Shown here: piece by piece, positions 756 through 18,233 of the stretch
Layout: the number at the start of each line of letters is the position of its first letter
Position numbering within the stretch: position 1 is the first letter of the stretch
From: Clostridia bacterium
GTDB taxonomy: Bacteria > Bacillota > Clostridia > JAAYHZ01
Assembly (NCBI GenBank): GCA_050950825.1
Contig: JBMNIH010000006.1
Coordinates: 1 to 64,000 of the forward strand
DNA length: 64,000 bases
Direction of reading: 5' to 3'
The notes under the pieces: generated by a model
Seen by the model: only the letters and a program-made list of their open reading frames with translations
What the model was told of the DNA's origin: nothing
Database searches by the model: none
Position numbers and translations under genes: made by a program

Positions 756-819
756 AGAACAGTTTTTGACTTCAATTCAGATGCATATTACAATAAATGT
801 AGTTGGATTGGAGGCATAT

Positions 820-1224
820 ATGGCAAATAAGAAATTTACCCCAGAAGAAATGTCCGAGTTAAGAAAAAGCAAGTATGTTCTGGATGTATCACCAAGCACT
901 GTACACTTCTCTGCGGAATTCAAAAAAGAATTCTGGAATGCACTAATGCAAGGGAAATTACCAAAAGATATAGTTAAATCTCTTGGCATTAATCCCGAGA
1001 TACTAGGCGAAATAAGGATTGGCGGATTAAAAACAATGATCCGTAATGAAGTAAAAAAAGGCAATGGATTCCGTGACTTGAATACTTATATGCAAGCTGG
1101 AAACGGCTATATGTCAGCAGAAAACAGGATTAAATACCTAGAGATGCAACTGGCATATAAGGAGCAAGAGATAGAGTTTCTAAAAAAAATTGTATCTTTA
1201 GATCCGGAGGCACGGGAATTATGA
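820..1224 (+). CDS. IS3-family transposase OrfA
   Basis: GGAGG RBS before ATG 820; C-terminal coiled coil ending QEIEFLKK; A8 slippery run at 1182-1189. Confidence 0.85.
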   Translation: MANKKFTPEEMSELRKSKYVLDVSPSTVHFSAEFKKEFWNALMQGKLPKDIVKSLGINPEILGEIRIGGLKTMIRNEVKKGNGFRDLNTYMQAGNGYMSAENRIKYLEMQLAYKEQEIEFLKKIVSLDPEAREL

Positions 1225-2180
1225 TCATTCCTGCAAATGCCAAGTATAAAATCATACAAGAAACAGTAGCACTGCATGGGAATCTTTTAAATGTTTCTGT
1301 CCTGTGCGAAATCGCTGGTGTTTCTAGATCCGGCTATTATCACTATCTCACTACAGAAGAAGTTAGAAAACAGAAAGAAGAACAGGATCAACAGGATTTT
1401 CTTCTCATCATAGAAGCATATAAACACAGAGGATATGATAAGGGTGCACGTGGGATTTATATGAGATTACTGCATCAGACTCCACCGGTTGTCATGAACA
1501 TAAAAAAGATTCGGCGTCTTATGAAGAAGTATGGATTAAAATGCCCAATTCGCAAAGCAAATCCATACAGACGTATAGCAAAAGCGATAGGTACTTCCTA
1601 TGTCGCTCCAAATCTCCTGAATCGCGAGTTTGAGGAACATGGACCACGGAAAGTTCTGCTTACAGATATCACATATATTATTAACGGTAGAGCACCTAGA
1701 TGCTATATGTCTACTATTATAGATGCCTGTACAAAAGAACTCCTAGCATGGGTAGTGAGTCCATCTTTGGAAGTTGATTTTGTACTTGAGACAGTGAATC
1801 AGCTCATTGAAAAACATGGGATTTCCTTAACGGCAGAAACCCTAATCCACAGTGATCAAGGGTCACATTACACTAGTCTTAGTTTTATACAGCTGATTAA
1901 AAACAGCGAATTAAGGCAGTCAATGTCCAGAAGGGCAAACTGCTGGGATAACGCTCCGCAAGAGTCCTTCTTCGGACATATGAAGGATGAAATTCATATC
2001 GAAGAGTGTAACACTTATGAAGAAATCCTATCAGCAATAACTGACTGGACAGAGTATTATAACTACGAAAGATATCAATGGGATTTAGCAAAGCTATCTC
2101 CTGCAGAGTATTACAAATATTTAACAACTGGCGAGTATCCACTAAATATACCCAAGCCAAATGGATTCAAGGAGAGCTGA
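1221..2180 (+). CDS. IS3-family transposase OrfB (rve DDE core), in the -1 frame to OrfA
   Basis: Motifs LTDITY, IHSDQGSHY, SMSRRANCWDNAPQESFFG. The -1 frame is open from the A8 run to ATG 1221. Confidence 0.93.
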   Translation: MIIPANAKYKIIQETVALHGNLLNVSVLCEIAGVSRSGYYHYLTTEEVRKQKEEQDQQDFLLIIEAYKHRGYDKGARGIYMRLLHQTPPVVMNIKKIRRLMKKYGLKCPIRKANPYRRIAKAIGTSYVAPNLLNREFEEHGPRKVLLTDITYIINGRAPRCYMSTIIDACTKELLAWVVSPSLEVDFVLETVNQLIEKHGISLTAETLIHSDQGSHYTSLSFIQLIKNSELRQSMSRRANCWDNAPQESFFGHMKDEIHIEECNTYEEILSAITDWTEYYNYERYQWDLAKLSPAEYYKYLTTGEYPLNIPKPNGFKES

Positions 2181-2190
2181 TGGGAAGGCA

Positions 2191-2361
2191 GCGTTTATGC
2201 CGCGAAAGCCTCTTGACAATGAGAGCCCGGCATGTTAGGCTATCTGACCGGGCATCAACCACCTCCAGAGCCCTTCTGCCTTGTTCAGCATGGGGGATGC
2301 CTCTGATGCCAGCAAACATGCCGGCAGAGGCTCGTTGTCAAGAGGATCGTGGAATAAATGC
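2191..2361 (+). ncRNA. Candidate structured ncRNA or hairpin module, copy A, 3' of the IS3 transposase
   Basis: Long imperfect inverted repeat, homologous to 16386-16553(-) with compensatory substitutions. Confidence 0.6.
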
Positions 2362-3708: not shown

Positions 3709-4644
3709 ATGAATGGAAATAAGGGTAGGAAAAAGGTACCTGAAGATGACGGCGTATCGTTAGCTTATGAAAACGATCTGATTGTGAAACTAAGGTTCGG
3801 CACACTTGTATTCCGCATAATATTGGATAATAATTTTTTTAGCCCCTACGAGGTGGAATACATCGAAAGACATAATCATGCAATCTATGAAATCCATTAT
3901 GTTCTTTCCGGAACCAGCAACATTGTTGTGGATAATAAAGAGCTTCAAATTCATCCCGATACGTACTACATCATTGCTCCTAATGTCTATCACGAGCAAA
4001 GGATCAATACAAAGGATCATGTGCATAAATATATGTTTTTCATCGACTACCAAATATTTAAAACGGAAAATAGTATATATCCCGAAGAAGAAGAGGAGAG
4101 AAATATATTGGATGCCTTTAAAAGCATTCGTTTTTTTAGTCAAAAAGGTATAAAAGATCATCTTTTTCTGTTAAATGAAATTCGCAAAGAGCTTCAAAAT
4201 CTTCAAGTGGGGTACTATTCGAGGGTACAGTCCATTTTCAAATTGCTGTTGATTCAAATCGTTCGAGATATCCTCTCCGGTAAAAAGGCAGATTACAGGG
4301 TTCCTTTCGGGTCGGTAGACGAGAAAAAAACCCTTATCATAGAAAAATTCTTTGATACCGGCTACCACCGGGATATAACGGCGGAGCAGCTGGCAAATCA
4401 GCTTCATGTCAGTATCCGTCAGCTGAATCGTATTATGAGAGACAAATACAACATGACCTTCATGCAAAAATTAATCGAAATACGCATGGAAGCGGCAAAA
4501 AAATATTTGGAAAGTACGGATCTATCCGTGAATGAAATATCGAAAAAAGTCGGCTATGATTCAGAAAGTAATTTTTATCATACCTTTAAAAAAATGAACA
4601 ACTGTACGCCCGGAGAATACCGTCAAAGGCTTTGCAAAAAGTAA
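3709..4644 (+). CDS. AraC-family transcriptional regulator with cupin sensor domain
   Basis: HNHAIYEIHY cupin motif; C-terminal EISKKVGYDSESNFYHTFKKMNNCTPGEYR signature. Confidence 0.92.
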   Translation: MNGNKGRKKVPEDDGVSLAYENDLIVKLRFGTLVFRIILDNNFFSPYEVEYIERHNHAIYEIHYVLSGTSNIVVDNKELQIHPDTYYIIAPNVYHEQRINTKDHVHKYMFFIDYQIFKTENSIYPEEEEERNILDAFKSIRFFSQKGIKDHLFLLNEIRKELQNLQVGYYSRVQSIFKLLLIQIVRDILSGKKADYRVPFGSVDEKKTLIIEKFFDTGYHRDITAEQLANQLHVSIRQLNRIMRDKYNMTFMQKLIEIRMEAAKKYLESTDLSVNEISKKVGYDSESNFYHTFKKMNNCTPGEYRQRLCKK

Positions 4645-16010: not shown

Positions 16011-16385
16011 CGGACACGTTGATAAAGGGAGCTTTTCTTCGAATACCGATACGGTGATAACAAAATGCAGTTCGACAGGCAACGCGACTGCATTTTGTTC
16101 GTTTAAATGAATTTTTATCGAAACTTTTCGGCATGCGATTGGATTAATTTTCACAGATAAAATATAGAATATATATTTAAGATATGATATAATGGGGTTC
16201 GCATGATAGCGTCAATATACATTCGGAAATAAAAAGAGAGAGTTCACCCTTATGATAAGATTAAATCTTGTCTGTATCATATATCATTTCCATCAATTTT
16301 TCCACATTTGTTTTTTTAATTGATTATTACACATCACCTATTTAAGAATTCATGAAGACAATAGCAAATGCACAAGTAAAGTACT

Positions 16386-16553
16386 CATTTATTCCACGGT
16401 TCGCTTTACGACGAGCCTCTGCCGGCATGTTTAGTGGCCTCTGCGGCATCTTCCTACAGGGTGAAGCCGGATACGGCTTTGTGTGTTTGATGCCAGGCAG
16501 ACAAGCCTAACATGCCGTCTACTCATCGTAAAGCGACTTTCGCGGCATAAAGC
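16386..16553 (-). ncRNA. Candidate structured ncRNA or hairpin module, copy B, 3' of the ISLre2 transposase
   Basis: Homologous to 2191-2361 with covarying stems. Confidence 0.6.
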
Positions 16554-16594
16554 CTACCGTCACACGGTTACAAAGTCATAGCGGTTCAAGCTGC

Positions 16595-18079
16595 TTATGC
16601 GTCCCAAGCCAGTGTGGTCATATTCTTTAGCCACTTCATACTGCTCCTTTCCAAACCATGTATGTGACGTCTGGTATCTTCCGCATACGTCCATTTTGAA
16701 TGTCTTCTTCTCAGATCTCTTATCAATTCTTCTTGTGCTTCACGCCTTTCCTTTTGCTTTTTTCGTTGTTTTTGATATTTTAGCAAGTCAAGAATCTTAC
16801 CGCCGTTTCTTTTGTACGCTCTGAGCCTTGCCATGCGGTCGCAACCCAATTCGCTCCATCCCATTGGTCTGCTGCTCATTCTTGCCGACAATACATGGCT
16901 TATTTGCCCTTCTATGCAATATGTCCAGCCGCTTGTTTCTTCCACTCGGGTTTTTATCCCTTGCCAATGATTTAGAAAATATCTTAACGCATCTTCCACT
17001 TCTTGCTTCTTGTTTTCACTTTCCGTAACCTTCAGGATCTGCTCATAGATATTCTTCAATTCCTTTTTGTCCAAACGATTCAAGGCTCCCCAAATCCAGT
17101 CTTTCACCTCGTCCGCGCTATCGTAAAGATGCGCCACTGACCTGTTTATATATTTCATCATATGGTATTTATCAAGGACATATTTGCTGTTCTCCAAATA
17201 TTCGCATCCTTTTTTTATCCACGAAGCTCCGTCTCCGACTACGTATATTCTCTCAAGATAGTCCGTATCGTATGTTTTTTCTATGTATTCGGCAACCTCC
17301 ATCCAAAGCTTTTCGTTGCCTTTGCCACCCTCGTAAATACCGCAAAAGTATTTTTTTCCGATCAGCTTATATCTGGGATTCTTGGATGCTTCCCCCGATT
17401 CATTGATAATATCCTCGAATACACAAACAAGCTTAGGCATCAGGGTATTAATCTTATGGCCCCTCGCATCTCGCTTCAAATCGCCCTTTTCATTCCAAAA
17501 CTGTGCCGCCACATGATCTTCATCGGCCATGACATGAAGCCTTTTTATCTTCTTCTTTCCTTCCGGTTCCGGCATCGGCATGTCCGCCTCAATCTCATGT
17601 ACCAGATCCATTACGGCTTGTTTGCTAATGCCTTCTTCCGCTTTTATGCTCGCATTCTCTCCGCCTTTGCGGTAACTGCTGTCTATACTTTCTTCCAAGG
17701 CTCTCGCAGCTGCGCCTAGCGTTACCTTCTGGTGCGGTTCAAATCCGAGCACCTGATCCAAAAGATATACATACTCACCCGTTCCTTTCGCACAATATCC
17801 GGTTCGGCAGAATTCAACCTTACCCATGACATCTACGATGGTTTTCTTTTTGTTCCTGTGCTCGACATTCCAATACTTTTTTCTCACGCTGCTTTCTCGT
17901 ATATCGTTATCAGCTTTCTCGTACAAATCCGCTATAAGGCTGACCGCTAACGTTGACGTAACTTTATTAACGAGTGCAGTCAAATCATCGGCATCTTTTT
18001 TACCTGCCAGAATATCACCCATCATTTTTTCAATTTCGACTAACCCATTTTCAATAAAATGTAGTATACTTTTATACAT
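16595..18079 (-). CDS. ISLre2-family transposase (UPF0236)
   Basis: ADEDHV, GDGASWI, LDKYH and EGQISHVLSARMSSRPMGWS motifs. Confidence 0.92.
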   Translation of the reverse strand: MYKSILHFIENGLVEIEKMMGDILAGKKDADDLTALVNKVTSTLAVSLIADLYEKADNDIRESSVRKKYWNVEHRNKKKTIVDVMGKVEFCRTGYCAKGTGEYVYLLDQVLGFEPHQKVTLGAAARALEESIDSSYRKGGENASIKAEEGISKQAVMDLVHEIEADMPMPEPEGKKKIKRLHVMADEDHVAAQFWNEKGDLKRDARGHKINTLMPKLVCVFEDIINESGEASKNPRYKLIGKKYFCGIYEGGKGNEKLWMEVAEYIEKTYDTDYLERIYVVGDGASWIKKGCEYLENSKYVLDKYHMMKYINRSVAHLYDSADEVKDWIWGALNRLDKKELKNIYEQILKVTESENKKQEVEDALRYFLNHWQGIKTRVEETSGWTYCIEGQISHVLSARMSSRPMGWSELGCDRMARLRAYKRNGGKILDLLKYQKQRKKQKERREAQEELIRDLRRRHSKWTYAEDTRRHIHGLERSSMKWLKNMTTLAWDA

Positions 18080-18233
18080 AGAGGACACCTTCCTTTGTGA
18101 TTTTTTGTTTTGGAAATTTAATCATATCACAATCGGGGTCCTCTTTCTATTTGTTATATTCCTCCATTGATTATTATCCGAAACTTACTTTACGCTAATG
18201 GTTCGCATCTTTGTTTTAAAGGAGGTTTTCTAC

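Follow-up and report, generated by a model that had tools for sequence, protein, structure and literature searches.

The single-strand origins (sso) of the ssoA class are about 160 nt long, fold only in single-stranded DNA, are primed by RNA polymerase and are orientation-specific; the loop-distal base of the hairpin, known as RSB, is needed for polymerase binding, and the CS-6 motif terminates the primer (PMC5703833; PMC8860593). In the staphylococcal rolling-circle plasmid pSELNU1, the published RSB is TTATGCCGAGAAAATTT, and CS-6, TAGCGT, is located in the loop (PMC4598088). A plasmid-type sso is also found on a chromosomal mobile element with a single-stranded phase, namely, sso1 of ICEBs1, which acts in an orientation-specific manner, resembles the pTA1060 type and, along with the sso-like regions of other integrative conjugative elements (ICEs), aids stability and acquisition (Wright, Johnson and Grossman 2015, PMC4595007). 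The ICEs use a relaxase-driven rolling circle for both replication and transfer, so that the need for an sso is expected (PMC4595007), unlike the case of insertion sequences (IS), which have no relaxase and are not known to need an sso. Non-coding cargo 3' of a transposase gene is represented by the Ssr9 sRNA gene of ISPpu9, a member of the IS110 family, which is an RNA gene present in one IS of one species (PMC12288879), in contrast to the module analysed here, a putative DNA replication signal common to many IS families. The IS5-family inverted repeats next to a plasmid sso (PMC12016507) are a different matter from an sso inside an IS. A search of the open literature (with subscription journals, ISfinder and supplements outside its scope) identifies no report of an sso inside a DDE/DEDD insertion sequence; the kind of element described below is known from plasmids and ICEs, and its location inside insertion sequences seems to be new.

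The window, that is, the whole 64,000-nt stretch analysed (C6:1-64000), belongs to a 3.55-Mb Clostridia assembly in 11 contigs and contains two long hairpins. Hairpin copy A (2191-2361, plus strand) resides in an IS3-family element on the plus strand, which extends from about 603 to about 2492 judging by the shared extent among its copies, the junctions and the target duplications, and encodes orfA (766-1224, plus strand, from the ORF list) and orfB, a DDE transposase (1221-2180, plus strand; Pfam rve, rve_2, rve_3 and HTH_21; stop codon at 2178-2180). The hairpin has the same orientation as orfB, and about 130 nt separate it from the right end of the element. Its stems include P1 (GCGTTTAT/ATAAATGC), P2 (CCGCG/CGTGG, with one G.T pair) and an 11-bp stem (2209-2219/2335-2345), and the loop-distal 5' base contains the RSB-like box TTTATGCCGCGAAAG (2194-2208, plus strand). 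The 5' arm also holds a promoter-like array (2213-2241, plus strand) that consists of TTGACA (2213-2218), a 17-nt spacer ending in TGT, and TAGGCT (2236-2241). The -35-like hexamer is within a fully paired stem and the -10-like hexamer falls at an interruption of the stem, in a region that is partly unpaired, an arrangement that calls for comparison with single-stranded DNA promoters and single-strand origins. The Frpo and ssi elements in the leading regions of conjugative plasmids are single-stranded DNA hairpins that mimic a -35/-10 promoter for the host RNA polymerase and serve early gene expression and priming after conjugative entry. Two other readings of the hairpin were rejected, namely, a small peptide starting from the ATG inside the RSB box, given that the frame length and register differ between hairpin types, and, considered from the sequence only, an attC-like site or intrinsic terminator, there being no T-run after either strand.

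The terminal repeats of this IS3 element, which is denoted type T1 and is present in five copies in the genome, are imperfect (TATAATGTACCCT.../...AGGGTACACTTTA); one copy diverges 235 nt upstream of the hairpin, and target duplications of 3-4 bp (ATC/TATC) flank the copies on contigs C8 and C4. Contigs from RNA libraries begin at 603, the left edge of the element in the window. Upstream of orfA, inside the left end, about four imperfect direct repeats CGGACA...TTTTCAAAACCCT are present at 640-780, which may be binding sites of the transposase or of OrfA. The window copy has no matching target duplication, and the preceding segment (1-602, with an ORF at 2-490 on the minus strand, and including 540-600) is common to the left flank of the T1 copy on contig C3; together, these two features suggest insertion into another repeat or recombination between IS copies.

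Hairpin copy B (16386-16553, minus strand) is located in an ISLre2-family element (type T2; 16205-18199, minus strand) that is delimited by the 9-bp duplication ATGCGAACC at 16196-16204 and 18200-18208 and encodes a 497-aa transposase (16595-18088, minus strand; Pfam UPF0236, E 4.8e-65). The hairpin is co-directional with the transposase gene, about 180 nt inside the IS end. Copy A and the reverse complement of 16386-16553 align over the whole hairpin, with a BLAST identity of 76% and unrelated flanks, and in the 11-bp stem, all four differences (positions 1, 3, 7 and 10 of the 5' arm) are compensated in the 3' arm (positions 11, 9, 5 and 2). The first-pass annotation, which described these two copies as homologous rod-like hairpins with a fully compensated stem and placed copy A inside its IS, is borne out on all these points, and copy B is likewise internal to its element. 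In copy B, the -35-like hexamer has changed together with its pairing partner (TTTACG/CGTAAA).

The RSB-like box TTTATGCCGCGAAAG is identical to the published RSB TTATGCCGAGAAAATTT at 12 of 13 positions (TTATGCCG-GAAA). A search with R1, a covariance model that derives solely from 10 IS hairpins of this genome and yields rough E-values, gives 176.2 bits for copy A and 150.3 bits for copy B and detects full-length similarity in all three classical ssoA plasmids that were tried: pC194 (2041-2216, 41.5 bits, E 2e-10), where the matching region contains the RSB and TAGCGT (that is, CS-6), pT181 (3761-3933, 35.1 bits, E 7e-9), where the match is directly 3' of the relaxase gene, and pE194 (631-802, 29.3 bits, E 3e-7). 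In each of the three alignments, the 5' base contains TTTATGCC, the 3' base contains TGGAATAAA, and GAGGCTC-like bases are present on the 3' side. In pUB110 and pTA1060, which are reported to carry other sso classes (the latter being the type that sso1 of ICEBs1 resembles), R1 finds nothing better than E 0.02. Like the ssoA of pC194, pT181 and pE194, the IS hairpin is a one-strand hairpin of about 160-180 nt with the RSB at the loop-distal 5' base, TGGAATAAA opposite, a conserved GAGGCTC on the 3' side and a promoter-like 5' arm. Unlike the plasmid ssoA, it is located in DDE/DEDD insertion sequences of Clostridia chromosomes rather than on a Rep-encoding plasmid, possesses an additional conserved middle stem (GGCATGTT/AACATGCC), and has a mostly degenerate CS-6. 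The strict form of this motif, TAGCG[TA], is present in 2 of the 55 apical regions from the distinct family members among the matches listed, and the relaxed form, [TC]AGCG[TCA], in 19 of the 55 (among the matches listed), against a mean of 5.7 in 200 shuffles; both window copies lack the motif.

Hairpins of this kind are also detectable in other plasmids. A BLAST search of PLSDB with the hairpin retrieves 15 records, all of them Bacillus plasmids that match at the RSB end with 89-92% identity, and R1 finds full matches of 59-72 bits in unannotated DNA of all three records examined (pFL7, a B. sonorensis plasmid and pBGM). In pBGM, a larger (36.8-kb) plasmid of Bacillus cereus, the hairpin, at 1494-1579 between a MerR-type gene and a small ORF, is a minimal 86-nt version reduced to the RSB base, the AGAGGCTC bulge and the long stem. 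Altogether, the sequence evidence, in the form of an extended one-strand hairpin, the RSB box, the profile similarity and the strand asymmetry described below, shows that the hairpin can be assigned to the ssoA/palA single-strand origin class, as a member or a close relative, carried as cargo in many unrelated IS families. The proposal of the first-pass annotation that it represents an undescribed system does not hold, given the RSB box and the R1 matches in pC194, pT181 and pE194. That it recognised no named RNA family is supported by the Rfam search, which yields no matches at gathering scores in the whole window and, at E <= 10, only a chance lncRNA match in the 2100-2500 region (13.2 bits against a cut-off of 50).

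Genome-wide, BLAST identifies 29 hairpin copies and one 27-nt fragment, far more than the two, both real, that had been noted. The 29 copies correspond to 13 distinct sequences and form six types: T1, in the IS3 element (5 copies); T2, in the ISLre2 element (13 hairpin-bearing copies); T3, in a second ISLre2-like element (one copy); and T4, T5 and T6, in IS256 elements (6, 3 and 1 copies, respectively). They are spread over 9 of the 11 contigs, which range from 119 to 728 kb, and none of the 29 is carried by a rolling-circle replicon, which would have a Rep gene and a double-strand origin. All 29 are inside an IS3, ISLre2 or IS256 repeat unit, between the stop codon of the transposase gene and the terminal repeat. 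The elements have inverted repeats at their ends and generate target duplications of 9 bp (T2), 8 bp (T4) and 3-4 bp (T1); the repeat units also continue beyond either side of the hairpin, which is therefore internal cargo of elements that were active recently. The orientation is gene-wise in IS3 and ISLre2, whereas in all IS256 copies, the hairpin is on the opposite strand and ends 3-20 nt from the stop codon.

The same genome also encodes circle-forming IS that lack the hairpin, namely, seven IS110 copies, six IS21 copies, a second IS256-like type and a second ISLre2-like type, so that the module is an option rather than a requirement. None of the 15 DDE_Tnp_1 copies of this genome is within 1.5 kb of a hairpin, by comparison of coordinates by eye. 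A single hairpin-less T2 copy (C2:188092-189582), the gene of which is 99.4% identical to the others, was considered as a clean empty site and ruled out because its sequence is cut off within the last codons of the gene and the right end is missing. Nested elements are observed as well: at C6:115100-115330 and C2:38740-39260, T4 is inserted in the 3' non-coding part of T2, and a 5'-truncated T4 hairpin abuts another T2 end.

The hairpins fold strongly and covary. With RNA parameters, the predicted energies are -84.7 kcal/mol for copy A and -81.3 kcal/mol for copy B (z = -5.07 and -6.75, respectively), with none of 200 shuffles folding as well in either case; with DNA parameters, the values for the two window copies are -43.7 and -43.5 kcal/mol, compared with -35.9 for pC194. 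RNAalifold analysis of the 10 distinct genome copies yields 52 pairs, of which 10 show double compensatory changes and one G.U pair is retained in all 10; the RSB-like box TTTATGCCGCGAAAG is invariant in the same 10 sequences. This covariation, along with the 29 copies in IS3, ISLre2 and IS256, corroborates the initial suggestion of a structure-selected module common to unrelated IS families. In a related ISLre2 element from a same-genus genome, the base of the hairpin is conserved and the flanking non-coding DNA is not; compensatory change in diverging IS lineages, while the non-coding neighbours drift, points to selection on the IS itself.

The strand that is under selection can be assessed from the minor pairs. 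Among 45 distinct public sequences (among the matches listed), there are 92 minor G.T pairs versus 25 A.C pairs on the RSB strand, and 38 versus 10 in the IS256-linked subset (again among the matches listed), in an alignment that was fitted to the model and includes relatives that are not independent. These 45 sequences were found through a pattern that required the RSB box and ATGTTAGGCT, and hence their conservation is partly by construction. With DNA parameters, each of the 55 distinct sequences (among the matches listed) folds more stably as the RSB strand than as its complement, the mean difference being -6.9 kcal/mol; these include all 26 IS256-linked sequences (among the matches listed), in which the RSB strand is antisense to the gene. 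That the RSB strand is favoured in both relations to the transposase gene, sense and antisense, argues for a signal in single-stranded DNA and against an mRNA 3' UTR; more generally, this sequence pattern argues that the RSB strand is selected to fold irrespective of the sense of the transposase. Thus, from the list of options that had been offered for the hairpin, the single-stranded DNA hairpin is the one that stands, whereas an ncRNA, a 3'-UTR regulator or an RNase III substrate fit poorly, since the better-folding strand in IS256 elements is antisense to the transposase.

When 60 other genomes from the class are searched with R1, 9 of them contain matches, and a pattern scan with one genome per species, using the pattern described above, identifies at least 104 stretches, of which 80 were taken as loci. 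Almost all of these 80 loci (among the matches listed) come from Clostridia or Bacillota from digesters and similar habitats, and named isolates of Acetivibrio and Anaerobacterium are also represented. A full-length R1 match is present in 51 of the 80, and 28 of the 80 stop within the hairpin because the contig or locus ends there (model positions 58-77, with one at 145), all among the matches listed. Short-read assemblies thus appear to break inside the hairpin, which explains the breaks of many metagenome contigs at these IS.

The neighbours of the 51 full-length loci (among the matches listed throughout this paragraph) were assigned to families by a Pfam search with one representative per cluster. 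The most common neighbour is an IS256-type gene (23 of 51) on the opposite strand, which ends -2 to 18 nt from the hairpin, with two additional, broken genes at 156-213 nt. An IS6/IS240-like gene of 475-491 aa, the stop codon of which overlaps the start of the hairpin, is found in 5 loci, and one more locus has a chimeric ORF that shares its C-terminus. The rest are rve-type genes (IS3 or IS481-like; 3 loci), IS21 IstB (2 loci, and one more at 344 nt), ISLre2, a 461-aa HTH protein of unclear family, a DDE_Tnp_1 gene at 461 nt and an IS110 gene 301 nt downstream (1 locus each). In 10 of the 51, the nearest ORFs include no transposase. The 60-genome search adds, as neighbours of the relatives' hairpins, IS110, an IS30-like HTH_38 protein, a DDE_3 gene overlapping the match, ISLre2 and IS256, as well as solo hairpins beside ordinary genes. 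The earlier description of two unrelated transposases is therefore correct as to their unrelatedness and understated as to their number, there being at least eight transposase types. In the non-IS256 families, the hairpin is always co-directional with the gene, both in the genome copies and in the public loci. Two matches are at cut-and-paste types, one overlapping an IS630-type DDE_3 gene and the other being the one 461 nt from the DDE_Tnp_1 gene.

Several observations bear on the exchange of the module. In a maximum-likelihood tree of 59 distinct hairpins (among the matches listed; 183 columns), the resolution of which is weak, with 28 of the 56 inner forks unsupported, the plasmid origins stand apart (support 96/89), the IS256-linked hairpins form a grade, and the co-directional hairpins of IS3, ISLre2, IS6-like, IS21, IS110 and IS30-like elements are intermixed; for example, the IS3 copy from the window groups with an IS6-like copy of Acetivibrio mesophilus. 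The ISLre2 element of the same-genus genome has an apical region like those of T1 and T3, unlike its close relative T2. In the RNA-library contigs, near-identical hairpins are joined to other DNA at 2193 and 2367. The intermixed tree, the T1- and T3-like apical region of that ISLre2 element and these joins indicate that the module moves as a unit. Given that RSB is a known recombination site (PMC5703833), recombination at RSB may be the route of exchange between IS. The contigs come from four metatranscriptome runs, in which the IS regions are covered and transcript starts, ends and strand are not readable; they also break within the hairpin, at 2217, which is to be expected from sequence words common to several hairpin types. 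In contigs of two of the RNA libraries, 2223 is joined to 2327, with the apical 103 nt skipped, which may reflect a natural short variant (compare the 86-nt form of pBGM), another variant or an assembly artefact.

With respect to function, the proposed role rests on the circular intermediates that nearly all of the host families form. The families described as circle-forming and presumed to use copy-out-paste-in transposition are IS1, IS3, IS21, IS30, IS256, IS110/IS1111, ISLre2, ISL3 and IS1202 (bioRxiv 10.1101/2023.06.07.543989), and six of these nine, IS3, IS21, IS30, IS256, IS110 and ISLre2, are among the hosts of the hairpin. In the copy-out step, the 3' end generated by cleavage attacks its own strand at the opposite end of the IS, and the flanking 3'-OH primes IS copying (same preprint). 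One IS strand would thus form a circle, and re-synthesis of the donor from the flanking 3'-OH would then displace it; by analogy, the displaced circle would have to acquire a complement, the same problem that is faced by the plus strand of a rolling-circle plasmid and is solved there by an sso. In the proposed mechanism, one particular strand, when single-stranded, would fold into the long imperfect hairpin; the host RNA polymerase would bind the RSB base and the promoter-like stem elements and make a short primer RNA, from which synthesis of the complementary strand would start. An IS-borne sso would, in this manner, let RNA polymerase prime the complement on the displaced single-stranded circle and turn it into the double-stranded circle that integrates, and the orientation of the hairpin would mark the strand that is rescued. 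The position of such a signal in the circle would be irrelevant, which fits its residence in the only dispensable stretch of the IS. [quoted passage not shown] The ISCth4 transposase and that of the hairpin-bearing IS256 type are only distantly related (172 bits, residues 22-385), and the structural paper on ISCth4 makes no mention of a stem-loop or palindrome; therefore, ISCth4 cannot be assumed to carry the module. We assign a probability of roughly 0.6 to the reading that the hairpin is ssoA-class cargo of these IS and acts in priming the complementary strand on the displaced single-stranded IS circle. The broader scenario, in which copy-out-paste-in IS release a circular single strand and, at least in Clostridia, many of them have repeatedly captured a plasmid-type ssoA through which the host RNA polymerase primes the second strand, is more tentative and falls somewhat short of even odds. 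The accepted copy-out model, which invokes a replication fork that primes the lagging strand without a special signal, speaks against a role of an sso, as do the weak CS-6, the circle-forming IS of this genome that lack the hairpin, the two matches at cut-and-paste types and the 10 loci with no adjacent transposase.

An unlikely alternative is that the hairpin is a genuine sso that serves a replicon rather than the IS, or a neutral passenger, gained by recombination with rolling-circle plasmids at the RSB hot spot. On this reading, it would help an IS-carrying plasmid or conjugative element to finish the second strand after rolling-circle replication or conjugative entry, or else would have no role in transposition. 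Indeed, RSB is defined as a recombination site that makes plasmid cointegrates and is common to several sso classes (PMC5703833), integrative conjugative elements are known to contain sso that promote stability and acquisition (PMC4595007), solo copies exist, and the mixing of IS families in the hairpin tree implies that the module has been exchanged repeatedly. However, the contigs that hold the 29 copies (9 of 11) measure 119-728 kb and are not small plasmids, the hairpin shows compensatory change against drifting non-coding neighbours, and a useless passenger should be lost under the strong size economy of IS. The least probable of the alternatives is an autonomous MITE-like palindrome that lands in IS and survives only in the dispensable 3' spacer. 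No target-site duplication or terminal repeat of a known IS is detectable at the hairpin borders in the six types, the flanks of which share only A-G before the first stem, and the orientation is non-random, with all non-IS256 families co-directional; no clean empty site was found either, the sole hairpin-less T2 copy being truncated in the last codons. These features outweigh the near-palindromic unit of about 175 nt, its occurrence in both orientations relative to the gene, the solo copies and the near-identical hairpins in other contexts with breakpoints at 2193 and 2367 in the RNA-library contigs, all of which a MITE-like origin would accommodate.

The remaining explanations invoke transcription. 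It is improbable that the module is a double-stranded promoter, TTGACA-N17-TAGGCT with an upstream TG, in which the hairpin is incidental and which directs outward transcription across the IS end in IS3, ISLre2, IS21 and IS6-like elements and antisense RNA into the IS256 transposase gene. The array, with a spacing of 16-18 nt, is present in 54 of the 55 distinct family members (among the matches listed), for 45 of which its TAGGCT part was demanded by the search pattern, and the IS regions are present in RNA-library contigs, although such contigs cannot show transcript starts. A plain promoter, however, needs no 3' arm, yet this arm is conserved and covarying, with G.T in excess of A.C on one strand; moreover, the -35-like hexamer of copy B changes with its pairing partner, and the outcomes would be opposite among IS families without a common logic. 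A structured RNA, be it a cis-acting 3'-UTR element, an RNase III substrate or an independent ncRNA, could account for the strong folds, the tolerance of G.U pairs and the place just after the stop codon, which fits most families. This reading is more doubtful still, given that there is no Rfam match, that all IS256-linked copies (23 of the 51 public loci among the matches listed and 10 in this genome) have the favoured strand antisense to the transposase gene, that no conserved promoter precedes the module and the flanks differ between IS types, and that the profile-level homology is to DNA replication signals of plasmids.

Taken together with the plasmid and ICE origins, the distribution of the hairpin shows that plasmids, conjugative elements and insertion sequences exchange sso modules. 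[quoted passage not shown] A strand-specific priming signal of the RNA polymerase type in an IS would imply a free single-stranded circle, with the orientation of the signal telling which strand it is, and, if this signal is real, a simple cis mutation, deletion or inversion of the hairpin, could probe the conversion of the circle to double-stranded DNA.
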